This document shows, piece by piece, positions 15,434 to 27,059 of a stretch of DNA of 64,000 nt. Origin of the DNA: Escherichia coli (lineage in GTDB: Bacteria > Pseudomonadota > Gammaproteobacteria > Enterobacterales > Enterobacteriaceae); assembly GCF_003019035.1 (NCBI RefSeq), contig NZ_CP027447.1; one strand, given 5' to 3'. Each line of letters opens with the position of its first letter. Positions within the stretch are counted from its first letter, which is position 1. A program made the translations under genes and the position numbers. The notes below the pieces were generated by a model, which worked only from the letters and a program-made list of their open reading frames with translations, had not been told where the DNA came from and made no database searches.

Positions 15434-16705
15434 ATGGAAGACGACTGCGACATTATTATTATTGGTGCCGGTATAGCAGGCACCGCTTGTGCTTTACGCT
15501 GCGCGCGGGCAGGTTTATCCGTTCTGTTACTGGAACGCGCTGAAATTCCCGGCAGTAAAAACCTTTCCGGCGGGCGTTTATATACCCAGGCGCTCGCGGA
15601 ACTCCTCCCTCAGTTTCACCTGACCGCGCCTCTTGAACGACGCATCACTCACGAAAGTCTTTCTCTGCTAACGCCGGATGGCGCAACGACGTTTTCCAGC
15701 TTACAGCCCGGCGGTGAATCCTGGAGCGTATTACGTGCACGGTTCGATCCGTGGCTGGTTGCCGAAGCCGAAAAAGAAGGTGTCGAATGCATCCCTGGTG
15801 CGACGGTAGATGCGCTGTATGAAGAAAACGGCAGGGTGTGTGGTGTCATTTGTGGTGACGATATTCTCCGCGCCCGTTATGTGGTGCTGGCAGAAGGTGC
15901 CAACAGCGTCCTGGCTGAGCGTCACGGGTTAGTGACTCGTCCTGCTGGCGAAGCGATGGCGTTGGGGATCAAAGAAGTGCTGTCGCTGGAAACATCCGCT
16001 ATTGAAGAACGTTTTCATCTGGAGAATAACGAAGGCGCAGCGTTGCTGTTCAGCGGCGGGATCTGTGATGACTTACCCGGCGGCGCATTTCTTTATACTA
16101 ATCAACAAACGCTCTCGTTAGGGATTGTTTGCCCGCTCTCTTCCCTTACGCAAAGTCGTGTTCCGGCAAGCGAGCTGCTGGCTCGCTTTAAAACGCATCC
16201 GGCAGTGCGCCCGCTTATCAAAAACACGGAATCACTGGAGTATGGTGCGCATCTGGTGCCAGAAGGTGGCTTGCACAGTATGCCGGTGCAATACGCCGGT
16301 AACGGCTGGCTGCTGGTGGGCGATGCGTTGCGCAGTTGCGTCAATACCGGAATTTCCGTGCGCGGCATGGATATGGCGCTGACTGGCGCGCAGGCGGCGG
16401 CACAAACGCTGATAAGCGCCTGCCAGCACCGCGAGCCGCAAAATCTGTTTGCGCTTTATCATCACAACGTAGAGCGCAGCCTGCTATGGGATGTTCTACA
16501 ACGTTATCAGCATGTTCCGGCGCTTTTGCAACGCCCTGGATGGTACCGTGCGTGGCCTGCGTTAATGCAGGATATTTCCCGCGATTTATGGGATCAGGGT
16601 GATAAACCTGTTCCACCGCTGCGCCAGTTATTCTGGCGTCATTTACGTCGTCATGGCCTGTGGCATCTGGCGGGCGATGTTATCAGGAGTCTGCGATGTC
16701 TGTAG
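15434..16705 (+). CDS. ygcN: FAD-dependent oxidoreductase, FixC-like (ETF-quinone oxidoreductase family)
   Basis: Frame of ORF 15404-16705; start at MEDDCDIIIIGAGIAGTACAL (FAD GxGxxG) gives 423 aa. Confidence 0.88.
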   Translation: MEDDCDIIIIGAGIAGTACALRCARAGLSVLLLERAEIPGSKNLSGGRLYTQALAELLPQFHLTAPLERRITHESLSLLTPDGATTFSSLQPGGESWSVLRARFDPWLVAEAEKEGVECIPGATVDALYEENGRVCGVICGDDILRARYVVLAEGANSVLAERHGLVTRPAGEAMALGIKEVLSLETSAIEERFHLENNEGAALLFSGGICDDLPGGAFLYTNQQTLSLGIVCPLSSLTQSRVPASELLARFKTHPAVRPLIKNTESLEYGAHLVPEGGLHSMPVQYAGNGWLLVGDALRSCVNTGISVRGMDMALTGAQAAAQTLISACQHREPQNLFALYHHNVERSLLWDVLQRYQHVPALLQRPGWYRAWPALMQDISRDLWDQGDKPVPPLRQLFWRHLRRHGLWHLAGDVIRSLRCL

Positions 16706-16956
16706 CCCGTAATCTCTGGCGCGTTGCCGATGCGCCGCACATTGTTCCGGCTGACTCCGTTGAGCGTCAGACGGTACAACGGTTGATTAACGCCTGTCCG
16801 GCTGGTCTTTTTTCGCTCACACCAGAAGGTGACTTACGTATTGACTATCGCAGTTGCCTGGAGTGTGGCACCTGCCGTTTGCTGTGCGACGAAAAAACAC
16901 TACAACAGTGGCGCTATCCACCTTCCGGATTCGGCATCACCTACCGCTTTGGATAA
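16696..16956 (+). CDS. ygcO: Ferredoxin-like protein, FixX-like
   Basis: Frame of ORF 16660-16956; 86-aa product from MSVARNLW with CLECGTCRLLC cysteine cluster; overlaps ygcN end. Confidence 0.85.
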   Translation: MSVARNLWRVADAPHIVPADSVERQTVQRLINACPAGLFSLTPEGDLRIDYRSCLECGTCRLLCDEKTLQQWRYPPSGFGITYRFG

Positions 16957-16972
16957 ATAACAAGGATAATTT

Positions 16973-17548
16973 ATGTCCCTCTTACACCTGCTCCGCCAGA
17001 ATCCGGTGATTGCTGCCGTTAAAGATAATGCCAGCCTGCAACTGGCAATCGATTCTGAATGCCAGTTTATTTCCGTGCTATACGGCAATATCTGCACCAT
17101 CAGTCAAATCGTCAAAAAGATTAAAAACGCCGGGAAATATGCCTTTATTCATGTCGATTTGCTGGAAGGCGCGTCAAATAAAGAAGTGGTGATTCAGTTT
17201 TTGAAACTGGTGACTGAGGCGGACGGCATTATCAGTACCAAAGCCTCAATGTTGAAAGCGGCAAGAGCGGAAGGTTTTTTCTGTATTCATCGCCTGTTTA
17301 TTGTTGATTCAATTTCGTTTCACAACATTGATAAGCAAGTTGCGCAATCGAATCCGGATTGTATTGAGATCCTGCCAGGCTGTATGCCCAAAGTGCTGGG
17401 CTGGGTGACGGAGAAAATCCGCCAACCGCTGATTGCTGGCGGGCTGGTGTGCGATGAAGAAGATGCGCGTAATGCGATTAACGCGGGTGTTGTGGCGCTT
17501 TCCACCACGAATACTGGGGTCTGGACGTTAGCGAAAAAATTGCTTTGA
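16973..17548 (+). CDS. ygcP: GlpP-like glycerol-3-phosphate-responsive antiterminator family protein
   Basis: 191-aa ORF; family assignment from memory of the E. coli ygcP product. Confidence 0.8.
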   Translation: MSLLHLLRQNPVIAAVKDNASLQLAIDSECQFISVLYGNICTISQIVKKIKNAGKYAFIHVDLLEGASNKEVVIQFLKLVTEADGIISTKASMLKAARAEGFFCIHRLFIVDSISFHNIDKQVAQSNPDCIEILPGCMPKVLGWVTEKIRQPLIAGGLVCDEEDARNAINAGVVALSTTNTGVWTLAKKLL

Positions 17549-17582
17549 CGGGATAATCGTAACAAGTTGAATTTGGTGTGAT

Positions 17583-17692
17583 TTGTAGGCTGCACGCCAC
17601 ATCCGACATTCAGCGCCTGATGCGACGCTTGACGCGTCTTATCAGGCCTACAAGTCCCCAGGCCAGAACCGTAGGCAGGATCATCCGGCAAC
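17583..17692. repeat. REP/BIME cluster
   Basis: GCCTGATGCGACGCTTGACGCGTCTTATCAGGCCTAC flanked by further GTAGGC/GCCGGATG half-sites between ygcP and ygcQ. Confidence 0.6.
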
Positions 17693-17695
17693 ACG

Positions 17696-18556
17696 TTATT
17701 GGCAATCTGCGTGAATGTTTGTCACCAGTGCCTCCAGCACCACTTTCCAGTCATCAACCACGCCAACATCTGCCTGTGAAAATACCGCTGCGCTGGCGTC
17801 ATGATTAATCGCCACCACAAACTTGCTATTGCATACGCCCGCCATTAACGCTGCTGCGCCAGAAGCGCCAACAACAATACACACCTCAGGTGCCAGCAGA
17901 TGTCCGGAAATACCAATCACTTTTTCAGCATCAACGCCACCGTTCATCACTCGCGCCCGACTGTAGCCCACTTCGGCTCCCAGCTTTTCTGCCAGCATAG
18001 CGATTTCCTGGTTATCTGCCTCTCCGCCCTGCCCCACCACCAGCACCCGTCTGGCCTCAGCTAATGGGTCACGGGTAACATTTTTCAGATCCTCTGTGCT
18101 AACCAGCCAGTCGGGAAGCGCGCCGGGGACAATGTTCAGTTGCTGCATACCAGAGGGCAATGTGGCGTTTTTCACTGCTCCCGCCTGGCGGGCAAGGGAA
18201 AGGCATAGCGGGCGTTTTTCTGTTTGCAGCGTCGCCGTTAGCGCATTTCCCCAGTGGGATTTGCGCACGCTTACGGTTGAAATATCTAACGAAGTCACCT
18301 GGCAGATGCTTGCACCATGTAAACGCCAGGCCAGCCGTGTCGACAGTTCATCACCAAACGTTCCCGGCGGAAAGAGAACAACGTCCGCTGGCGTTCGCTG
18401 CCACTGTTCCACCAGCGCATCCAGCACCTGTTCCGCCACTACGGGCTGAGGTTCAATCTGCCAGTGTGCCAGGGTACAACCGCTGAAATCCTGTTCTGCC
18501 AGACAGCTCGCTATTGCGGCATTCTCCTGATTTATTGTCACAATTGCGATATTCAT
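17696..18556 (-). CDS. ygcQ: Electron transfer flavoprotein alpha-subunit-like protein
   Basis: Frame of ORF 17696-18589; start at MNIAIVTINQ gives 286 aa; ETF-alpha-like C-terminal FAD region. Confidence 0.85.
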   Translation of the reverse strand: MNIAIVTINQENAAIASCLAEQDFSGCTLAHWQIEPQPVVAEQVLDALVEQWQRTPADVVLFPPGTFGDELSTRLAWRLHGASICQVTSLDISTVSVRKSHWGNALTATLQTEKRPLCLSLARQAGAVKNATLPSGMQQLNIVPGALPDWLVSTEDLKNVTRDPLAEARRVLVVGQGGEADNQEIAMLAEKLGAEVGYSRARVMNGGVDAEKVIGISGHLLAPEVCIVVGASGAAALMAGVCNSKFVVAINHDASAAVFSQADVGVVDDWKVVLEALVTNIHADCQ

Positions 18557-19332
18557 GGCTGCATCCTTTGGCGTAAATAGTCCTGCCATAGCTTTTGCGC
18601 TTTTTCTGCTACCGTTTGCCCATCAATCAGCGTCGCTCCGCGTTGTTGCTCTGCTCTTGCCAGTTGCAGACACAGCATCGCTGGCGATTCGGCAGCAACA
18701 GTTTTACGGATAATTTCTGCTTTCCCCGCCGCCATTCGCTGACGCATTCCCGGTACTGGCAAGGCCACTTCACCACACTGACGCACGGCAATCACCGCAG
18801 GCAAGCGAACCCGGCAACAGCGCAGCCCGTTTTCAGTACGCTGTTCAAGGGTGATAAACGGCGCGTCGAGAGTAAAACGCTCCACCTGGGTGAAGCAGGG
18901 CCAGCCCAGCATTTCCGCCAGCAAAAATGGCGTTTGCCCATTCTGCCCTTCGCTGCTTTGGCAGCCGGTAATGATCAGATCCAGCGGATTCTGACGCTGC
19001 CATTCGGCAATATGGCGAGCGACAAATTCCGGCGCAAAGCGCAGATCTGCCACCGTCTCCAGCAATACAGCGTCCTCAAACCCAAGAGCCATGAGATAGC
19101 GCAGCCAGTGCAACGCCCGTTCATCCCCCATGCTCAACGCGGTTAAAGACATCGGCGTACCGTTTTTTCTCTGCGCTAACAGAAGCGCGGCAGCCGCCTG
19201 TTCATCAGCACCGAGTAAACTTCGCAGCAGCGAAACATCCGGTCCGCAATTACCCTGAGCCGCCACCTGCCACTCTTTTTCTGCCAGCATTCCGGCATCC
19301 GGTTCGGCTTTAAACGCTAACAGAATGTTCAT
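18553..19332 (-). CDS. ygcR: Electron transfer flavoprotein beta-subunit-like protein
   Basis: Frame of ORF 18553-19338; start at MNILLAFKAEPD gives 259 aa; overlaps ygcQ start. Confidence 0.85.
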   Translation of the reverse strand: MNILLAFKAEPDAGMLAEKEWQVAAQGNCGPDVSLLRSLLGADEQAAAALLLAQRKNGTPMSLTALSMGDERALHWLRYLMALGFEDAVLLETVADLRFAPEFVARHIAEWQRQNPLDLIITGCQSSEGQNGQTPFLLAEMLGWPCFTQVERFTLDAPFITLEQRTENGLRCCRVRLPAVIAVRQCGEVALPVPGMRQRMAAGKAEIIRKTVAAESPAMLCLQLARAEQQRGATLIDGQTVAEKAQKLWQDYLRQRMQP

Positions 19333-20647
19333 TCGCACCTCCTACATTTCCCGCCGCCACCAGCGGGAGTGCTTTGGTTTCTGGCGCCCATAACCAGGTA
19401 ACAACAAAACCAACCAACAACACTGCCGCCAGAAGCAATAAAGTGACCGGCATCCCCCACTGCGCCAGCACCCACGGCAGCAGGCCAGTACTTACCGCCG
19501 CCCCCAACCGACTCATGGCGGTGGCAAAACCGACGCCCAGCGAGCGAATGTCAGTAGGAAAACTTTCCGCAGGCAAAATGCCCACCAGATTACTGACTGC
19601 AGAAATGGTGGTGCTGAAGAGAACAAAAAGCAGCAGCGTTAATGAACTGCCGGAAGGCAAACAGGCCATCACTACCAGCGTTGCCGCCAGCAGCAAAAAA
19701 CTTCCCAGCAAAAACTTGCGATGTGCCAGCAGGTGCGTCAGAACTAATCCCAGCAGCGCGCCCACAATTAACAACGCATTAAGCATCAGGCTGGCGGTCA
19801 GCGCATCCTCCAGACCAATAGTCTGGGCGATGGTCGGCAGCCAGGTATAAATCACAAACCATGGGATTACGAGGCAGACAAAGAAGACGCTGTTAAACGC
19901 CGTGCGTCGCCAGTAGCGCGAAGAGAACAAGGTTTTGATGTGTTTATGGGTCGCCGCTGCCACTTCATCGCCCAGTAAAACATGTGGCCCCAAATAGCGA
20001 TGCACAATAGCGTGAGCTTCAGCAAAACGTCCCTGACGCATCAGCCAGCGTGGCGATTCTGGCGTTCCCCAGCGTAATAACGTAATCAACAATGCGGGCA
20101 GAGCTGCCGATGCCAACAGCCAGCGCCAGGCCTCCGGGTTTTCGGAAATAAAGTGATGTCCAGCAATACTTGCCAGCACATAGCCTACGGTCCACACCAC
20201 GCTGAATGCGCCCAGCAAAATACCGCGATGGCGGCGCGGGGAAAATTCAGCCAGCAAGGTGTGACCGACTGAGTAATCGCCTCCCAGACCAATGCCGATC
20301 AAAATGCGCAATCCAATAAGATGCTCTGGCGTGGTGGCAAAAAATTGCAAGAACGAAGCGAGCGTAATCAGCATAAAACTGAAGGTGAAAATTTTTTGCC
20401 GCCCGATATGGTCGGAGATCCACCCCAAAACCAGGCTGCCAAGAAACAAACCAAGTAACGCCGAGCCGCCGATCATTCCCGCCATAAACGGCGTCAGTTG
20501 CATGGCTGGAGTAAGCTGAATAATGGCGTAACCAATGACGCCGAGGACATAACCGTCGGTCAGGTGCGCACCGAAAGTGAGCGCAGCAATTCGACAGTGA
20601 AAACGGTTAAGCGGTAAATCATCCATTCGCACCGGTGAAGTGTTCAT
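19310..20647 (-). CDS. ygcS: MFS transporter (sugar-porter type)
   Basis: Frame of ORF 19310-20722; start at MNTSPVRMDD gives 445 aa; about 12 predicted TM helices and the GRQKIF / PESPRWL MFS motifs. Confidence 0.85.
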   Translation of the reverse strand: MNTSPVRMDDLPLNRFHCRIAALTFGAHLTDGYVLGVIGYAIIQLTPAMQLTPFMAGMIGGSALLGLFLGSLVLGWISDHIGRQKIFTFSFMLITLASFLQFFATTPEHLIGLRILIGIGLGGDYSVGHTLLAEFSPRRHRGILLGAFSVVWTVGYVLASIAGHHFISENPEAWRWLLASAALPALLITLLRWGTPESPRWLMRQGRFAEAHAIVHRYLGPHVLLGDEVAAATHKHIKTLFSSRYWRRTAFNSVFFVCLVIPWFVIYTWLPTIAQTIGLEDALTASLMLNALLIVGALLGLVLTHLLAHRKFLLGSFLLLAATLVVMACLPSGSSLTLLLFVLFSTTISAVSNLVGILPAESFPTDIRSLGVGFATAMSRLGAAVSTGLLPWVLAQWGMPVTLLLLAAVLLVGFVVTWLWAPETKALPLVAAGNVGGANEHSVSV

Positions 20648-20740
20648 CTTTACCCCTTCATTGTCCGGTAATAAGAACGGCTTCTCGCCTGAGAAGCCGA
20701 AAAGGCAACGCCCCGACATCACGGGACGCTGCCTGACACA

Positions 20741-22195
20741 TTATTTTTCAATCGGATAGATAGTACCCGTATTCATAATGCCGTTAGGATCGAACTGCTT
20801 TTTCAGCCCTTCCAGCAACGCCCACGCGCTGCCGTGTTCCAGTTTGCTCCAGTGAACGCGATGTTTACCGATACCGTGGTGGTGCACCATCGAACCGCCG
20901 AGGCGAATGGTTTCTTCGCAGATGATTTTGTTGAGCGGATTGTGGTACTTGTCGATTTCCTCTTCCGGCTTACAGTCAACGACGTTGTAGTCGTAGACGA
21001 AGTACATGTTGGTGCCGTTCTGATAGCTATGAGAGGAGTGACCGCCCAGCATGGTGATGTCGTCGGCGTGCGCGAACTCGGTACGAATACGGTTAATAAC
21101 GCTTTCGTAGATTTCGTGGATGCAGCTCCAGCAGCCGGACACTTCGGTGGTAAAGCCCATGTTGCCGGTTTTGAGGATCTGCACACGTTCAGCGGCCACT
21201 TTATCCGGCCCCCAGTTCAGGTGATTAAACCAGGTTTCGATCAGCTTGCTGTCCACGCGCTGGCATTGCGGGTAACGTGCCACGATTTCAGCAATCCCTT
21301 CGCCCGTCGCCTTCGCAATGCGAGGGTTACCTTCAGCCATAAAGATCAGCACACATTTACCATCGGCAAAATGGGTGAAGTGTTGGGTGCCATCTTCAGC
21401 GTCATACAAACGAGCGATCGACGGACGATACCCTTCCACCATGATTTCACGCAGGATGTTGAAGCCGGTTTTCATGTCTTCCAGGATATAGCCGTAGAAG
21501 AGGTTGTTTTCCGGGGTGAACTTAAAGATTTTCACTGTTACTTCAGTGATATAGCACAATGCACCTTCGTTGCCGATGATAATGTGACGAATGTCCGGGC
21601 CTGCCGCGCGGCGTGGTACGTTTTTAATACGTGTGACGGTGCCATCAGCCAATACTGCTTCCAGACCAACGACCATATCTTCGATTGCGCCGTAGAGTGT
21701 GGAGAACTGCCCGATACTGCGGGTTGCTACCAGGCCGCCCATCTGCGCCAGCGGTTTTGATTGCGGTGAATGCCCCGTGGTGTAACCTTTTTCACGCAAC
21801 GTGTTTTCCAGCACCTCCAGCGGAACACCACATTGCGCCGTGGCCTGCATATTCTCAATATCAATATTAATGATTTGATTCATGGCAGAGCCGTCGAGCA
21901 CCACCGAGTTTTCCACAACGGTTTCCAGCCCACCTTCGGTAGCGGAAGCACCGGTACGCGGCACACCGTTAATTTTGTGCGCATTCATAAAATTCAGCAC
22001 ACGGGATACTTGTTCTGTGGAACCGAGTTTTACGACCGATGCCGGAATCGGCAAAGTATAAATGCCATGAATATCCGGAAATTTGCGAAAACGGTCAATA
22101 CTGTTTTTCTTTAATACTGTTTCATCGGTAATTACGCGATCTGCACCAACAATTTCCTTTAGCTGGTCGACAATCGCTGCGCGGGATAAAGACAT
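20741..22195 (-). CDS. ygcU: FAD-linked oxidoreductase (alkyl-DHAP synthase / glycolate oxidase-like)
   Basis: 484-aa ORF with FAD-binding PCMH-type region. Confidence 0.88.
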   Translation of the reverse strand: MSLSRAAIVDQLKEIVGADRVITDETVLKKNSIDRFRKFPDIHGIYTLPIPASVVKLGSTEQVSRVLNFMNAHKINGVPRTGASATEGGLETVVENSVVLDGSAMNQIINIDIENMQATAQCGVPLEVLENTLREKGYTTGHSPQSKPLAQMGGLVATRSIGQFSTLYGAIEDMVVGLEAVLADGTVTRIKNVPRRAAGPDIRHIIIGNEGALCYITEVTVKIFKFTPENNLFYGYILEDMKTGFNILREIMVEGYRPSIARLYDAEDGTQHFTHFADGKCVLIFMAEGNPRIAKATGEGIAEIVARYPQCQRVDSKLIETWFNHLNWGPDKVAAERVQILKTGNMGFTTEVSGCWSCIHEIYESVINRIRTEFAHADDITMLGGHSSHSYQNGTNMYFVYDYNVVDCKPEEEIDKYHNPLNKIICEETIRLGGSMVHHHGIGKHRVHWSKLEHGSAWALLEGLKKQFDPNGIMNTGTIYPIEK

Positions 22196-22264
22196 AGTAA
22201 TTCCTTCCTGATAATAAAAATGGAATAGTCATTAATAAGAGAAAACAGAAACCACCGTTATGGA

Positions 22265-23050
22265 TTAGCGCACTAAATAACCGCCATCGACCACTAATAA
22301 ATGCCCGTTAACATAATTTGAAGCCGGACTTGCGAGGAATACGGCTGCGCCCATTAAATCCTGAGTATCACCCCAACGGTTTGCCGGTATATGATCAAGA
22401 ACGCGCTGATTGGTTTCTGGATTACTGCGTGTTGCCAGCGTAATATCGGTTGCATAATATCCCGGGGCAATACCATTCACCTGAATATTATATTGACCTA
22501 ATTCATCGCAATAGGCTTTGGTGAATCCAGCAAGAGCATGTTTAGTGGCAGAATAAGCAGGTGACCATTGTCCACCTAAGTAAGAGAACAATGAACAGAT
22601 ATTAATGATTTTACCGCTTTTCTGCGGGATCATAATTTTTGCTGCTTCGTAGCTTAACTCGAATGCGGCGGTCAGGTTCACATCAATCATCGGGTCCCAG
22701 TCGGCACGACCGAAGTCCAGCACCTTATTCAGCTTACAAATACCGGCATTGTTAACCAGAATATCTACGGTACCGAAGCGCTCACAGCAGGCAGCGATAA
22801 TCTTCTGCGGCGCGCCTTCTGCGGTGATATCCACCTGCATAAAATCAACTTCGACACCCTGTTTTTCAATCATTTCCTTTGTTTCGCCGTTATCTTTGAC
22901 GAAGCTAGGGATAAAGACATTTGCGCCAGCTTTGGCCAACGCCATGGCAAATGCCTGGCCTAAACCGCTATTCCCGCCGGTAACAATTGCTGTTTTACCT
23001 TTCAGGGAGAAAAAATCCATTGAGAACGCATTGAGAGATTCGATTGACAT
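22265..23050 (-). CDS. ygcW: Short-chain dehydrogenase/reductase
   Basis: Frame of ORF 22265-23062; TGGNSGLG Rossmann motif and YSATK catalytic motif. Confidence 0.9.
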   Translation of the reverse strand: MSIESLNAFSMDFFSLKGKTAIVTGGNSGLGQAFAMALAKAGANVFIPSFVKDNGETKEMIEKQGVEVDFMQVDITAEGAPQKIIAACCERFGTVDILVNNAGICKLNKVLDFGRADWDPMIDVNLTAAFELSYEAAKIMIPQKSGKIINICSLFSYLGGQWSPAYSATKHALAGFTKAYCDELGQYNIQVNGIAPGYYATDITLATRSNPETNQRVLDHIPANRWGDTQDLMGAAVFLASPASNYVNGHLLVVDGGYLVR

Positions 23051-23366
23051 AGTTAGCTCCAATTTCCGTAAGGCAAAAAAAAGAAAGGTAACTTCCCCCG
23101 CGAGAGGGAAGTTACCTTTCTCATTATCTCTGGTAACTGGATATAATTTTTAGCATAAGGGCATAAGCGCTAATGTGATCGTAATCACAGTGTGATATTC
23201 GTATTATCAAATAATTTTAAAAAGCAGAAGCGTGACTACTCTCACACAACACCACTGCTTTCCATGTTATTTCTTATTGCAATTACTAGAGACCTGAGAA
23301 AAGTAATCCACCTGAAAGGGCGGCTTACTTTTCTCTTTTTTTGTCTATTACAAATGGGAATACGAT

Positions 23367-24644
23367 ATGCAACACAACTCATATCGCCGTTGGATAACCC
23401 TCGCGATAATTAGTTTTAGCGGCGGCGTTAGTTTCGACCTGGCTTATTTACGTTATATTTATCAAATTCCCATGGCGAAATTTATGGGATTCAGCAATAC
23501 CGAGATAGGTTTAATAATGAGTACCTTTGGTATTGCAGCTATTATTCTTTATGCGCCCAGTGGCGTTATTGCCGATAAATTCTCACATCGCAAAATGATT
23601 ACTTCCGCGATGATCATTACCGGATTACTGGGTCTGTTAATGGCAACTTATCCACCGCTGTGGGTAATGCTCTGTATTCAGGTTGCCTTTGCGATAACGA
23701 CGATTTTAATGCTGTGGTCGGTGTCGATTAAAGCCGCATCGTTGCTGGGCGATCATAGCGAGCAAGGGAAAATTATGGGCTGGATGGAAGGGCTGCGCGG
23801 CGTCGGTGTAATGTCGCTGGCGGTGTTTACCATGTGGGTCTTTTCTCGCTTTGCACCGGATGACAGCGCCAGCCTGAAAACGGTCATTATCATCTACAGT
23901 GTGGTCTACATTTTATTGGGGATTCTGTGCTGGTTTTTTGTTAGCGATAACAACAACCTGCGCAATACCAATAACAAAGAAAAACAGTCATTCCAGCTTA
24001 GCGACATCCTGGCCGTTTTGCGCATCAGCACCACCTGGTATTGCAGCATGGTGATTTTTGGTGTCTTCACCATCTACGCCATTCTGAGTTACTCCACCAA
24101 CTATCTCACCGAAATGTACGGCATGTCGCTGGTGGCGGCGAGCTACATGGGGATTGTGATCAACAAAATATTCCGCGCGCTGTGTGGTCCACTTGGCGGC
24201 ATTATCACCACCTACAGTAAAGTGAAATCCCCTACCCGCGTGATCCAAATCCTTTCCGTACTCGGCTTGCTGGCGTTAACTGCCCTGCTCGTCACGAACT
24301 CTAACCCGCAATCGGTCGCGATGGGGATTGGCCTGATTTTACTGCTGGGATTCACCTGTTACGCCTCACGCGGGCTGTACTGGGCCTGCCCTGGCGAAGC
24401 GAGAACACCGTCTTACATTATGGGCACCACGGTAGGTATTTGTTCGGTGATTGGATTCCTGCCGGATGTCTTCGTTTACCCGATTATCGGCTACTGGCAA
24501 GACACCCTGCCCGCTGCAGAAGCCTACCGCAATATGTGGCTGATGGGCATGGCGGCGCTTGCCATGGTGATCGTCTTTACCTTTTTGCTGTTCCAAAAAA
24601 TTCGTACTGCTGATAGCGCCCCTGCTATGGCTAGCAGCAAGTAA
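23367..24644 (+). CDS. yqcE: MFS transporter
   Basis: 425-aa multi-TM ORF divergent from ygcW. Confidence 0.85.
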   Translation: MQHNSYRRWITLAIISFSGGVSFDLAYLRYIYQIPMAKFMGFSNTEIGLIMSTFGIAAIILYAPSGVIADKFSHRKMITSAMIITGLLGLLMATYPPLWVMLCIQVAFAITTILMLWSVSIKAASLLGDHSEQGKIMGWMEGLRGVGVMSLAVFTMWVFSRFAPDDSASLKTVIIIYSVVYILLGILCWFFVSDNNNLRNTNNKEKQSFQLSDILAVLRISTTWYCSMVIFGVFTIYAILSYSTNYLTEMYGMSLVAASYMGIVINKIFRALCGPLGGIITTYSKVKSPTRVIQILSVLGLLALTALLVTNSNPQSVAMGIGLILLLGFTCYASRGLYWACPGEARTPSYIMGTTVGICSVIGFLPDVFVYPIIGYWQDTLPAAEAYRNMWLMGMAALAMVIVFTFLLFQKIRTADSAPAMASSK

Positions 24645-24670
24645 GTCCAGAAAATTACAGGAGAAAAATC

Positions 24671-26149
24671 ATGTCGAAAAAATACATCATAGGGATTGAT
24701 GGCGGAAGTCAGAGCACAAAAGTGGTGATGTATGATCTGGAAGGTAATGTGGTTTGCGAAGGCAAAGGCTTATTGCAGCCGATGCACACGCCAGATGCCG
24801 ATACCGCAGAACATCCTGACGACGATTTATGGGCATCATTATGTTTTGCCGGTCACGATTTGATGAGTCAGTTTGCCGGAAATAAAGAAGATATTGTCGG
24901 CATTGGTCTGGGATCCATCCGTTGCTGCCGTGCGTTATTGAAAGCCGATGGCACACCAGCTGCGCCGTTGATTAGCTGGCAGGATGCACGCGTTACACGC
25001 CCTTACGAACATACGAATCCTGACGTGGCATATGTCACCTCTTTTTCGGGTTATCTGACGCATCGCTTAACCGGCGAGTTTAAAGACAATATCGCCAACT
25101 ATTTTGGTCAGTGGCCGGTGGATTATAAGACCTGGGCATGGAGCGAAGATACCGCGGTAATGGAGAAGTTTAATATTCCCCGACAGATGCTTTTTGATGT
25201 GCAAATGCCGGGCACTGTTCTTGGGCATATCACTCGTCAAGCCGCGCTGGCGACACATTTCCCGGCTGGGCTGCCGGTTGTTTGTACCACCAGTGATAAA
25301 CCGGTAGAAGCTCTGGGAGCCGGATTACTGGATGATGAAACGGCGGTGATTTCTCTTGGCACCTACATCGCGCTGATGATGAACGGTAAAGCACTGCCGA
25401 AAGATCCGGTAGCGTACTGGCCGATTATGTCTTCTATTCCGCAAACCTTGCTGTATGAAGGTTACGGTATCCGCAAAGGCATGTGGACGGTGAGCTGGCT
25501 ACGCGACATGCTAGGCGAGTCGTTAATTCAGGATGCCAAAGCACAGGATCTTTCACCGGAAGATTTGCTCAACAAAAAAGCGTCTTGTGTGCCGCCTGGC
25601 TGTAATGGTCTGATGACGGTGCTGGACTGGCTGACCAATCCGTGGGAACCATACAAACGCGGGATTATGATCGGCTTTGATTCCAGCATGGATTACGCAT
25701 GGATATATCGTTCGATACTGGAAAGCGTGGCGCTGACGCTGAAGAACAATTACGACAATATGTGTAATGAAATGAATCACTTTGCAAAGCATGTGATCAT
25801 TACTGGCGGCGGTTCGAACAGCGATCTGTTTATGCAGATTTTTGCCGACGTGTTCAACCTTCCGGCACGCCGTAACGCCATTAATGGTTGTGCAAGTCTG
25901 GGGGCAGCGATCAATACGGCGGTAGGTCTGGGGCTATACCCGGATTACGCAACGGCTGTCGACAAAATGGTTCGCGTGAAAGATATCTTTATGCCTGTTG
26001 AGAGCAACGCCAAACGCTACGACGCGATGAATAAAGGCATTTTCAAAGACCTAACCAAACACACTGATGTGATCCTGAAAAAATCGTATGAAGTGATGCA
26101 TGGTGAGCTGGGGAATGAAGATTCGATCCAGAGCTGGTCGAATGCGTAA
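24671..26149 (+). CDS. ygcE: FGGY-family carbohydrate kinase
   Basis: 492-aa ORF MSKKYIIGIDGGSQSTKVVMYD... with FGGY N- and C-terminal ATPase signatures. Confidence 0.9.
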   Translation: MSKKYIIGIDGGSQSTKVVMYDLEGNVVCEGKGLLQPMHTPDADTAEHPDDDLWASLCFAGHDLMSQFAGNKEDIVGIGLGSIRCCRALLKADGTPAAPLISWQDARVTRPYEHTNPDVAYVTSFSGYLTHRLTGEFKDNIANYFGQWPVDYKTWAWSEDTAVMEKFNIPRQMLFDVQMPGTVLGHITRQAALATHFPAGLPVVCTTSDKPVEALGAGLLDDETAVISLGTYIALMMNGKALPKDPVAYWPIMSSIPQTLLYEGYGIRKGMWTVSWLRDMLGESLIQDAKAQDLSPEDLLNKKASCVPPGCNGLMTVLDWLTNPWEPYKRGIMIGFDSSMDYAWIYRSILESVALTLKNNYDNMCNEMNHFAKHVIITGGGSNSDLFMQIFADVFNLPARRNAINGCASLGAAINTAVGLGLYPDYATAVDKMVRVKDIFMPVESNAKRYDAMNKGIFKDLTKHTDVILKKSYEVMHGELGNEDSIQSWSNA

Positions 26150-26786: not shown

Positions 26787-27059
26787 TGGTTTATCCCCGC
26801 TGGTGCGGGGAACTCTTGGCATAGGCGCTATAGCGGCGCTCTGTGTCCGGTTTATCCCCGCTGGCACGGGGAACTCGTTGGTGCCGTTGTTGTAACCGTA
26901 GAAACCGACGGTTTATCCCCGCTGACGTGGGGAACTCGCAGGTCAACACGGGCGATAAACCCGGCTGACCGGTTTATCCCCGCTGACGTGGGGAACTCGA
27001 TAAGCAGATTGCAGAACTACAGGCGAAGGACGGTTTATCCCCGCTGACGTGGGGAACTC
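26787..27059 (-). CRISPR. Orphan type I-E CRISPR array: 5 repeats, 4 spacers
   Basis: 29-nt repeats at 26787, 26848, 26909, 26970 and 27031 (61-nt period), consensus CGGTTTATCCCCGCTGRCRYGGGGAACTC; ends in ...AACTC rather than the ...AACAC of the cas-proximal array. Confidence 0.95.

Follow-up and report, generated by a model that had tools for sequence, protein, structure and literature searches.

We found two copies of a conserved leader RNA element of about 65 nt in the divergent ygcW/yqcE region of a 64,000-nucleotide stretch of Escherichia coli DNA (contig NZ_CP027447.1, hereafter the window), paired with YgcP, a GlpP-like protein encoded in the same cluster. Our main reading, to which we give a probability of roughly 0.6, is that the ygc locus forms a catabolic regulon which is under carbon catabolite control, is induced by its substrate and is switched through transcription antitermination, with the enzyme and electron-transfer scheme proposed below. 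An RNA switch placed at two ygc operons would offer a direct route to finding the nutrient that is degraded.

Ten genes are intact between 15434 and 26149, namely ygcNOP, ygcQRSUW (minus strand) and yqcE-ygcE. Pfam and NCBIfam upheld, for each ygc protein, the family named in a preliminary description of this DNA; none of these proteins reached an NCBIfam equivalog cut-off. That description considered the substrate not to be established, in agreement with our search, in which no defining paper or curated model for it was found.

Two leader attenuators in the ygcW/yqcE region

The element consists of a weak hairpin, with a RUUACY/RGUAAY stem and a purine-rich GAGA loop, overlapping a strong intrinsic terminator. 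In the ygcW leader (23075..23142, minus strand), the antiterminator stem pairs 23138..23132 with 23116..23110, and the 19-bp terminator hairpin (23122..23081) and its U8 tract (23082..23075) are placed directly 5′ of the RBS. In the yqcE leader (23281..23343, plus strand), 23282-23287 pairs with 23302-23307 in the antiterminator and 23296-23306 with 23325-23335 in the terminator, followed by a U7 tract at 23336-23342. Covariance model R1 gave two sense matches in the 64 kb, which are these two leaders (72 bits for ygcW, 63.6 bits for yqcE). Predicted folding energies were −32.4 kcal/mol for the terminator versus −5.5 kcal/mol for the antiterminator hairpin at ygcW, and −20.7 versus −1.4 kcal/mol at yqcE, so that the terminator should be the default fold of both leaders.

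Two short K-12 RNAs, published and catalogued as sRNAs, coincide with the leaders: ecr2774 (73 nt) with that of ygcW, and ecr2775 (63 nt, northern-confirmed) with that of yqcE. Their 5′ ends are 139 nt apart, which is the distance between 23142 and 23281 in the window.

About 112 strong matches to the element were detected in 60 related loci across phyla. The gene directly downstream was ygcW (54), yqcE (43), a BCCT transporter gene (5) or ygcU (4), and Opu and MttB operons were also found in this position. Over 53 sequences, the antiterminator stem was 95% paired, versus 16-55% for slid controls; its pair 6-36 was always formed, as G-C in 39 sequences and as A-U in 14. The terminator stem was 94% paired, with four pairs altered on both sides. 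Independent switches are few and the primary sequence is highly conserved, so that part of the covariation signal reflects shared ancestry.

Antitermination had been put forward as a possible mode of control; it is strongly supported by two conserved leaders that combine terminator and antiterminator and are linked to YgcP. The hairpins, however, had been expected upstream of ygcQ and ygcS, and are instead located upstream of ygcW, first gene of ygcWUSRQ, and of yqcE.

Promoters and CRP control

An extended −10 box is predicted for ygcW (TGCTAAAAA, 23147..23155, minus strand), at a distance from the element that is kept in other Enterobacterales, and another for yqcE (TGTTATTTC, 23265..23273, plus strand) with the same spacing as at ygcW; both were read from the sequence. 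The 5′ end of the yqcE leader is predicted at 23280 and observed at 23281. CRP site 1 (TGTGATCGTAATCACA, 23176..23191), a perfect consensus, lies about 42 bp 5′ of the ygcW leader 5′ end. A putative CRP-like site 2 (CGTGACTACTCTCACA, 23231..23246), again read from the sequence, matches 9 of 10 consensus positions and is centred 41.5-42.5 bp 5′ of the yqcE leader 5′ end. Each of the two promoters would thus have a CRP site near −41.5, that of yqcE being predicted. Site 1 was also predicted by PhyloScan, corresponds to a CRP ChIP-seq peak between ygcW and yqcE in ETEC (PMC4287617), and binds CRP in vitro with a Kd of 1.7 nM (PMC12871828); yqcE-ygcE has been classed as CRP-activated (PMC8085971).

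We propose that two divergent CRP-dependent promoters drive transcription into the short leaders, where by default each would form its strong intrinsic terminator and yield RNAs of about 63-73 nt. YgcP loaded with its ligand, probably an intermediate of the pathway that is phosphorylated by the kinase YgcE, would bind and stabilise the weak upstream hairpin (RUUACY/RGUAAY stem, AGAG...GAGAAA loop), whose 3′ strand doubles as part of the terminator 5′ arm. The YgcP-bound hairpin would block the terminator, hence read-through into ygcWUSRQ and yqcE-ygcE.

A conserved enzymatic core and its possible substrate

Judging from the comparison of loci, three enzymes make up the conserved core, which would be ancient: YgcW (an SDR), YgcE (an FGGY kinase) and YgcU (a flavoenzyme). 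YgcW (22265..23050, minus strand) resembles KduD and gluconate-5-dehydrogenase; it scored 349.9 bits with the NCBIfam KduD model PRK06935, just below the cut-off of 369, and is 63-97% identical across phyla. YgcE (24671..26149, plus strand) has the Pfam domains FGGY_N and FGGY_C. Its nearest models are xylulokinase and LsrK (about 142 bits, far under their cut-offs), with GlpK at 103 bits, and its best PDB match is LsrK (8e-30). YgcU (20741..22195, minus strand; FAD_binding_4 and FAD-oxidase_C, 65-99% identity across six phyla) is a VAO-fold flavoenzyme whose best solved relative is alkyl-DHAP synthase (ADPS, 1e-55). Like ADPS/AGPS (PDB 4bby, 2uuu), it combines a VAO-fold FAD domain with a cap domain and a conserved Arg, Tyr and HHH loop: ADPS residues R419, Y578 and H615-617 correspond to R262, Y398 and H438-440 of YgcU, which are invariant in 84 homologues. 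It differs from ADPS in lacking the N-terminal 150-180 residues, and in being soluble, bacterial and encoded in a catabolic operon. Its chemistry would be ADPS-like.

In the scheme that we favour, YgcW would oxidise the penultimate CHOH adjoining a terminal CH2OH, and could act before or after phosphorylation by YgcE, a ketose/diol-type kinase. Together the three enzymes would most plausibly turn a compound that ends like glycerol (X-CH2-CHOH-CH2OH) into a DHAP substituted at position 1; YgcU would then process this product, with release of X and a triose phosphate. LsrK in Lsr AI-2 processing and EryA-EryB in the erythritol catabolism of Brucella offer parallels: a terminal diol is phosphorylated by an FGGY kinase, and the resulting intermediate is then brought to DHAP-level products; in the Brucella case, a respiratory flavin dehydrogenase follows the kinase. 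Unlike these systems, the ygc locus has no equivalents of LsrF, LsrG, EryC, EryH or EryI, and its dehydrogenase and that of Brucella come from different fold families. In other phyla, genes for BCCT and Opu transporters and for MttB methyltransferases belong to the regulon under the element. Taken with an ADPS-like YgcU, this suggests a substrate in which a glycerol-like end is joined to a quaternary-ammonium group. This suggestion may not transfer to E. coli, because the transporters encoded here are of the MFS type, with neither BCCT nor Opu. They are YgcS (19310..20719, minus strand; Pfam Sugar_tr, 5e-53), with NCBIfam matches under cut-off to aromatic-acid/H+ symporter, sugar-porter and organic-cation subfamilies, and YqcE (23367..24644, plus strand; Pfam MFS_1), with a weak match to the D-galactonate-transporter subfamily and an element upstream of its gene in 43 loci.

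A possible, though clearly less probable, alternative is an ordinary sugar-alcohol pathway, in which a pentitol or tetritol enters by MFS transport and is handled by SDR oxidation and an FGGY kinase, as for ribitol and arabitol, YgcU and the ETF forming a polyol-phosphate or 2-hydroxyacid dehydrogenase that delivers electrons to quinone. The combination of an SDR with an FGGY kinase is classical for pentitols, xylulokinase figures among the nearest YgcE models, YgcU is also similar to LctD and to the glycolate oxidase GlcD, both ETF users, and CRP control resembles that of sugar operons. Against this, among solved relatives the YgcU substrate domain aligns with that of ADPS only and the catalytic residues are invariant, the element outside enterics drives quaternary-amine rather than sugar transporters, and across the compared loci no isomerase, epimerase or aldolase is conserved alongside the triad. 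Of the pathway proposed in the preliminary description, the catabolic character is favoured by CRP binding and by the CRP activation of yqcE-ygcE, whereas "sugar or polyol" is probably too broad in view of the ADPS-like YgcU and of BCCT, Opu and MttB in the regulon elsewhere.

Electron-transfer accessories

From the same comparison, the ETF and FixCX-like genes appear as lineage-specific accessories. YgcQ (17696..18556, minus strand; Pfam ETF_alpha and ETF) is an ETF alpha subunit at about the same distance from the canonical as from the bifurcating ETFs of the PDB, and YgcR (18553..19332, minus strand; Pfam ETF, 3.4e-16) the beta subunit. The overlaps of ygcR with ygcQ (4 nt) and ygcS (23 nt) are consistent with a single transcript. 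Outside enterics the pair is only about 30% identical, and in Erwinia, Pantoea, Halobacillus and others it is absent beside the core. YgcN (15434..16705, plus strand) is a FixC-like FAD-dependent ETF:quinone oxidoreductase with the Pfam ETFQO_UQ-bd domain (NCBIfam PRK10015, 380 bits, and FixC, 363 bits, both under cut-off), and among solved structures its closest relative is FixC from the FixABCX complex of T. maritima (7koe_C, 4.6e-56). YgcO (16696..16956, plus strand) is a FixX-like 4Fe-4S ferredoxin (NCBIfam FixX, 80 bits, cut-off 166). Among the compared loci, YgcNO is confined to Enterobacterales. The genes of the FixABCX-like module earlier assigned to the pathway are present, but across phyla the module lies outside the conserved core.

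As in FixABCX and E. coli caiTABCDE-fixABCX, ETF alpha and beta, a FixC-like flavoprotein and a FixX-like ferredoxin accompany a catabolic operon, and the BCCT transporter of the ygc-type regulon in other phyla recalls CaiT. Unlike FixABCX, the ygc genes are split in two units (ygcNO with ygcP, and ygcRQ closing ygcWUSRQ), their partner is a VAO-type flavoenzyme rather than an acyl-CoA dehydrogenase, and all NCBIfam scores are under the Fix cut-offs. The LctBCD lactate dehydrogenase-ETF complex (7qh2) likewise has the gene of a VAO-type FAD dehydrogenase adjoining those of ETF beta and alpha, and LctD and LctC appear among the PDB matches. It differs in that the YgcU substrate domain is ADPS-like, not D-lactate-dehydrogenase-like, and E. 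coli YgcQ has no ferredoxin domain. In Photobacterium and Clostridia, YgcU is accompanied by a second LctD/GlcD-like oxidase and a ferredoxin-domain ETF.

We infer the direction of electron flow, as well as the inducer and the order of the enzyme steps: in E. coli, the YgcU flavin would probably be re-oxidised via YgcRQ, then YgcNO, to quinone. Alkyl-DHAP synthase is redox-neutral, so a strictly ADPS-like reaction predicts no ETF partner, which counts against our preferred explanation. The ETF genes often following ygcU imply that, unlike ADPS, it carries out net redox chemistry; in several lineages YgcU has no adjacent ETF.

Alternatively, the module might be reductive and bring low-potential electrons to YgcU, then a reductase under anaerobiosis, as proposed for E. 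coli fixABCX and carnitine. The paralogous fix and ydi systems of E. coli are thought to support reductions, the structure nearest to YgcN comes from a bifurcating complex, and ETFs beside YgcU occur mainly in anaerobes and facultatives, being missing in aerobic Bacilli, Erwinia and Pantoea. We consider this unlikely, since energy-yielding catabolism typically involves activation by CRP and a kinase, and since YgcQ cannot be assigned clearly to the bifurcating type. It would alter the direction of electron flow only, leaving the regulatory model unaffected.

Pairing of the element with YgcP

YgcP (16973..17548, plus strand), the proposed trans-acting regulator, covers the full Pfam G3P_antiterm model (PF04309, 1.4e-62) and matches PDB 3kts, a "glycerol uptake operon antiterminator" (7e-28). 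The covariance model search gave no copy of the element upstream of ygcN, so the regulator operon is apparently not self-attenuated. Element and YgcP were both present in 55 loci and both absent in 20; the 8 discordant loci comprise 5 with the element only, 4 of them on truncated contigs, and 3 in which only YgcP is present. Fisher's test gives p = 9e-12, without correction for phylogeny, and p = 9e-6 for non-enteric loci alone. Counting against the link, Serratia microhaemolytica has both elements and no YgcP within 21 kb, and Bacillus sp. DNRA2 has YgcP and no element. The element matches the cluster's own GlpP-like protein, and we infer that YgcP binds it.

The arrangement resembles that of B. 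subtilis GlpP, of the same Pfam family, and its targets glpD, glpFK and glpTQ. In the glpD 5′UTR, too, the 5′ arm of an intrinsic terminator overlaps with a short hairpin lying upstream, the loop of which is purine-rich and of the GAGA type (GAGAU..GAGGAGA); in both systems termination is the default, the regulator gene lies beside the regulon, and catabolite control is combined with antitermination. The ygc system differs by its stem (RUUACY/RGUAAY versus GGUC/GACC), by a regulon devoid of glycerol or glycerol-3-phosphate genes, by its occurrence in Proteobacteria as well as Bacillota, and by catabolite control through CRP class II sites instead of CcpA. E. coli glp mutants are not known to be rescued by the ygc locus, so the ligand is probably not glycerol-3-phosphate itself.

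That the leaders act without YgcP, as metabolite-binding riboswitches or trans-acting small RNAs, would fit the accumulation of both short RNAs in K-12, their cataloguing as sRNAs and the high conservation of the element. It is nevertheless quite improbable: the element is absent in all 18 non-enteric loci that encode the same enzymes without YgcP, it always stands directly 5′ of regulon genes, a stem of 6 bp and a loop of variable length make it too simple to belong to a known class of aptamers, no Rfam match was found, and its layout mirrors the protein-dependent glpD leader.

Conservation of the locus

Region 15434-26149 is 100% identical in E. coli SCU-301. Of 5426 complete E. coli genomes, 5060 (93%) contain at least 80% of the region, and in nearly every genome the best match is 95-99% identical to the query. 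The ygc locus is near-core in the species, and its G+C content is mostly 50-56%, so that "island", as it had been called, is a loose term, even though the genes are there. A cryptic remnant, non-functional in E. coli, might explain why no reported phenotype or substrate was found and why expression stops in the leaders under laboratory conditions, but is hardly credible given ten intact ORFs and this conservation. The yqcE leader carries no annotation; 5063 E. coli genomes each have a single copy of it, which is at least 99% identical in 4967 of them.

Organisation and conservation of the ygc locus

The ygc genes have long been uncharacterised in the best-studied bacterium, yet of the 5426 complete E. 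coli genomes, 5060 (93%) contain at least 80% of the stretch 15434-26149, and in E. coli SCU-301 the stretch is 100% identical. The locus itself is already known and annotated. Ten intact genes, arranged as three transcription units, are given by both the RefSeq annotation and the ORF list: ygcN-ygcO-ygcP (plus strand), ygcW-ygcU-ygcS-ygcR-ygcQ (minus strand, with intergenic gaps of 69 and 21 nt, then overlaps of 23 and 4 nt) and yqcE-ygcE (plus strand). On one side the locus adjoins queD and cysJIH-cas3; on the other it is followed by a CRISPR array and by queE. All gene families named in the preliminary description were recovered with Pfam and NCBIfam, and none of the ygc proteins reached a curated NCBIfam equivalog cut-off. 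The label “island” was loose, as a compositional signature was sought and none was seen, the G+C content being unremarkable.

The CRISPR array is annotated at ~26787-27059 (minus strand), in the ygcE-queE interval of the identical RefSeq record; on the opposite side of the ygc locus, cas3 and a gene of the hok/gef family are located upstream of cysH. A REP/BIME-like palindrome at 17565-17648 (plus strand), between the convergent ygcP and ygcQ genes, gave a sub-threshold Rfam match to naRNA4 (39.3 bits, for a gathering score of 59.5). It is probably where both converging transcripts end.

Two copies of an RNA attenuator precede ygcW and yqcE

A consensus scan revealed a 19-bp hairpin followed by eight T's at 23122..23075 (minus strand), directly before the ribosome-binding site of ygcW. 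A second hairpin with a U tract was read from the sequence on the yqcE side (23296-23342), and a like feature was present upstream of the ygcW homologues in the homologous clusters of Photobacterium and Sporomusa. The consensus of the element is RUUACY-(0-4)-AGAG-N3-6-GAGAAARGUAAY-[variable GC hairpin]-UURCYUUUCUC-U5-9. Two mutually exclusive folds are predicted: a short antiterminator hairpin, in which RUUACY pairs with RGUAAY, and a long terminator, in which GAGAAARGUAAC pairs with GUURCYUUUCUC.

Loci encoding YgcU relatives were collected (80 loci, one genome per species), and 53 elements from such loci were aligned by MAFFT, without structural input. The antiterminator stem was 95% paired in this alignment, compared to 16-55% when the partner strand was slid as a control. 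Pair 6-36 was G-C in 39 elements, A-U in 14 and unpaired in none, and pair 11-31 was U-A in 42 and C-G in 7. The outer terminator stem was 94% paired, with four pairs altered on both sides. As independent switches are few (at least three lineages), covariation provides good, not overwhelming, evidence for the predicted folds.

A covariance model built from the 53 elements gave two and only two sense matches across the 64-kb window, the ygcW leader element (23141..23075, minus strand, 72 bits) and the yqcE leader element (23278-23342, plus strand, 63.6 bits). The preliminary description had proposed to look for an antiterminator target hairpin upstream of ygcQ/ygcS. The model detected no attenuator upstream of ygcN, ygcS or ygcQ, nor anywhere else in the 64-kb window: the targets precede ygcW and yqcE instead. 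A 9-bp hairpin within the ygcS start was rejected as an attenuator, having no U tract. In Rfam the leaders matched no family at E ≤ 1; besides the naRNA4 match, the only one in the ygc region was a sub-threshold match to a snoRNA family inside ygcE, probably due to chance.

The terminators fold at -32.4 (ygcW) and -20.7 (yqcE) kcal/mol, and the antiterminator hairpins alone at -5.5 and -1.4 kcal/mol. Termination is therefore expected to be the default state, and because the antiterminator hairpin is so weak, it needs a protein to stabilise it.

Published short RNAs coincide with the leaders, downstream of CRP sites

Romero et al. 2014 (PMC4681348, Table S5) reported two “previously undetected sRNAs” in the K-12 ygcW-yqcE interval, ecr2774 (73 nt, ygcW strand) and ecr2775 (63 nt, yqcE strand, confirmed by northern). 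K-12 and the window are 98% identical in this region, the elements differing only by one extra T per U tract. Whatever the coordinate version, the 5′ ends of the two RNAs are 139 nt apart, which is the distance between window positions 23142 and 23281, just upstream of the two antiterminator stems. We assumed that the paper uses U00096.2 numbering, with an offset at the ygc locus that we take to be 1,978 bp; on this assumption, the 3′ ends fall at or slightly past the U tracts. Since the short RNAs coincide with the leaders, both promoters are active in LB, and without inducer the transcripts stop at the leader terminators. The authors gave no attenuated-leader interpretation of these RNAs (PMC4681348). 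ecr2774 and ecr2775 appear to be attenuated leaders rather than “sRNAs”, a reinterpretation that seems to be new.

A perfect consensus CRP site, TGTGATCGTAATCACA (23176-23191, site 1), lies about 42 bp upstream of the 5′ end of the ygcW leader and ecr2774. It corresponds to a ChIP-seq peak in ETEC (PMC4287617), is bound by CRP in vitro (Kd 1.7 nM; PMC12871828), and is also a PhyloScan prediction. A second, predicted site read from the sequence, CGTGACTACTCTCACA (23231-23246, site 2), agrees with 9 of 10 consensus positions. Its centre lies 41.5-42.5 bp before the 5′ end of the yqcE leader, and yqcE-ygcE has been classed as CRP-activated (PMC8085971). Both sites have the class II position, centred near -41.5, with binding of CRP reported for site 1 and predicted only for site 2. 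An extended -10 (TGn), also predicted by reading the sequence, is found at both promoters, at equal spacing to the element. Catabolic control of the locus is well grounded.

The element co-occurs with the GlpP-type protein YgcP

YgcP matches G3P_antiterm (PF04309) over its full length (1.4e-62), and PDB 3kts at 7e-28. Among related loci, about 112 strong covariance-model matches were obtained. A YgcP homologue and the element were both present in 55 loci, both absent from 20, and discordant in 8. In five of the discordant loci, four of which lie on truncated contigs, the element was present alone; the other three had YgcP only (two with weak matches of ~34 bits). Co-occurrence was significant by Fisher's test (p = 9e-12 for all loci, 9e-6 for non-enteric loci only, kinship being ignored in both). 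The clearest contrast came from the Desulfobacterota loci, which have the same enzymes with neither YgcP nor the element. Two exceptions were seen: Serratia microhaemolytica (locus L033) has both leader elements and no YgcP within 21 kb, and Bacillus sp. DNRA2 (locus L084) has YgcP and no detectable element.

The B. subtilis glpD 5′UTR is an experimentally established GlpP target, and its sequence was taken from PMC9604022, Table S4. Its layout is that of the ygc leaders, with a terminator overlapping an alternative upstream hairpin. The glpD hairpin has a weak GGUC/GACC stem with the loop CUGAGAUGAGGAGA, and its 3′ strand forms the beginning of the 5′ arm of a terminator with a folding energy of -47 kcal/mol. 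The ygc system has in common with GlpP-type control a PF04309 regulator, a terminator overlapping an upstream hairpin, and premature termination without inducer. Given the co-occurrence of YgcP with the element and the glpD-like layout, we conclude that the ygc leaders are the probable targets of the GlpP-type antiterminator YgcP, the binding of which we infer. The antitermination control that had been put forward as a possibility is thus well grounded, the RNA targets being defined and situated at ygcW and yqcE. The RNA switch appears to be new, as does its linkage to YgcP across phyla; if true, this would be the first GlpP-type RNA switch described in Proteobacteria, in E. coli, and would extend GlpP-type antitermination beyond the glycerol genes of Firmicutes. 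A defined cis-acting RNA switch makes the substrate question directly testable: a leader-reporter fusion would give a yes/no read-out of the inducer, and YgcP could serve as a ligand-binding probe.

YgcW, YgcU and YgcE form the conserved core

Gene-order maps were drawn for 83 related loci. The set kept across phyla (Enterobacterales, Vibrionaceae, Desulfobacterota, SAR324, Clostridia, Bacilli, Negativicutes and Actinomycetes) comprises YgcW (63-97% identity), YgcU (65-99%, over a range that takes in E. coli, marine sulfate reducers and halophilic Bacilli) and YgcE (43-59% outside enterics), usually together with YgcP.

The best solved relatives of YgcU are the ADPS enzymes (alkyl-DHAP synthase; 1e-55 for 4bby, in two aligned stretches). 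This is the only solved family in which the cap (substrate) domain also aligns with YgcU, and both Pfam and the 4bby alignment give YgcU a VAO-type FAD_binding_4 domain and a cap domain. ADPS residues Arg419, Tyr578 and His615-617 are catalytic in ADPS, and align with YgcU Arg262, Tyr398 and His438-440; the YgcU residues showed no variation among 84 of 84 homologues. The second, GlcD-like oxidase of some loci has none of them. YgcU does not have the N-terminal extension of ADPS (484 aa versus 584-658 aa), the alignment beginning at about ADPS residue 183. Judged from these alignments, YgcU appears to be an ADPS-like conserved flavoenzyme, a relationship seemingly recognised here for the first time, and its chemistry may be new.

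YgcW narrowly missed the KduD models (349.9 versus a cut-off of 369 for NF005390, 276 versus 339 for TIGR01832), the next-best models being gluconate 5-dehydrogenases. KduD and gluconate 5-dehydrogenases oxidise the CHOH adjoining a terminal CH2OH. YgcE is nearest to xylulokinase and to the AI-2 kinase LsrK, and its NCBIfam scores were far from the cut-offs (XylB 142/380, LsrK 142/528, GlpK 103/590), so that it seems assignable to the FGGY superfamily only.

The ETF and FixCX genes are accessory

The FixABCX-like module named in the preliminary description is an accessory electron outlet rather than the heart of the system. Outside enterics the ETF pair is only ~30% identical, and YgcNO was restricted to Enterobacterales among the 83 loci. 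The core lacks an adjacent ETF pair in Erwinia, Pantoea, Izhakiella, Serratia proteamaculans, Halobacillus, Thalassobacillus, Virgibacillus, Alkalihalobacillus, SAR324 and Saccharopolyspora. Because the ETFs adjoining YgcU are mostly found in anaerobes and facultative organisms, YgcU may perform net redox chemistry, and its electrons may need a dedicated outlet when oxygen or a housekeeping acceptor is missing.

YgcQ and YgcR are ETF alpha and beta subunits by Pfam (ETF_alpha and ETF), and fall far under the FixB and FixA NCBIfam cut-offs; YgcN scored 363 for FixC (cut-off 610) and YgcO 80 for FixX (cut-off 166). By these scores, the four proteins are Fix paralogues, not equivalogs. The best structural relative of YgcN is the FixC of the FixABCX complex in PDB 7koe, and YgcQ is equidistant from bifurcating and canonical ETFs in PDB similarity.

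Loci L008-L032 were set against window 15434-19332, and within single genomes their identity to E. coli proved very uneven: 90-97% for YgcP, YgcW and YgcU, and only 40-78% for YgcQ, YgcR, YgcO and YgcN. Either the ETF/FixCX genes evolved much faster in these genomes, or they were replaced by recombination.

Many non-enteric loci encode a second, GlcD-like FAD oxidase without the HHH loop (L004 13187-16591, with equivalents in L002, L051-L055, L063-L065, L069, L078 and L084). Photobacterium, Clostridia and a Bacillus have a second ETF pair, whose alpha subunit carries a ferredoxin domain, as in LctBCD. These genes point to a second oxidation step, coupled to ETF, that E. coli does not have.

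Candidate substrate and pathway

Open-access full text yielded no paper defining the substrate or the pathway, in agreement with the preliminary description. A 2026 paper still names YgcU “an FAD-binding oxidoreductase”; it was tested there for one role only, that of D-serine deaminase, and the outcome was negative. In a PTS-Ntr review, “ygcO” is a misprint of ycgO.

By family membership, YgcU, YgcW and YgcE would all point to the conversion of a terminal -CHOH-CH2OH into -CO-CH2-O-phosphate, i.e. a 1-substituted DHAP, the class of compound on which ADPS acts. In non-enteric loci, the YgcP-type element stands immediately before genes for BCCT transporters (five cases), for Opu-type ABC transporters (OpuAC binding protein, CBS-domain ATPase) and for a non-pyrrolysine MttB-family methyltransferase. 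In characterised cases, these three families handle quaternary-ammonium compounds. A “sugar or polyol”, as first proposed, can accordingly be narrowed, from the enzyme families and the non-enteric regulon, to a compound with a glycerol-like end. Our best guess is a glyceryl-X, where X would bear a trimethylammonium group in organisms with BCCT, Opu or MttB; X may differ in E. coli, as two MFS transporters are used there instead. The link to these families suggests a role in quaternary-ammonium turnover in gut and marine habitats.

We tentatively propose, at roughly one chance in five, that YgcW, YgcE and YgcU form an unrecognised cross-phylum pathway breaking non-hydrolysable glyceryl linkages. 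The glycerol end of glyceryl-X would be oxidised and phosphorylated to a 1-substituted DHAP, X being for example the ether-linked trimethylhomoserine head group of deacylated betaine lipids, or (trimethylammonio)propanediol. YgcU would then expel X, running ether-lipid-forming chemistry in the catabolic direction, and in anaerobes its electrons would be taken by ETF. A phosphorylated intermediate of the pathway would be the signal sensed by YgcP. If true, YgcU would represent a new class of C-O or C-N bond-cleaving flavoenzyme.

Metagenomes were also scanned by pattern to find additional regulon members; the matches were mostly E. coli-like yqcE leaders, and no family other than YgcW, YgcU, YqcE, Opu and MttB came to light. 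About 16 others, on phage-like marine contigs or within coding sequence and with no terminator, were attributed to chance. The sequence TTACTAGAGGGCACGAGAAAAGTAA in the near-identical, phage-like marine contigs L116, L135, L143, L157, L160, L162 and L168 agrees with the 5′ half of the motif; it was considered a chance match, since no terminator or ygc-type gene follows.

Finally, two public assemblies, labelled as a Planctomycetota MAG (L005) and Chryseobacterium sp. (L028), carry either ygcU or the entire ygc cluster, with 99% and 88% identity to E. coli, respectively, and probably reflect contamination or mis-binning.
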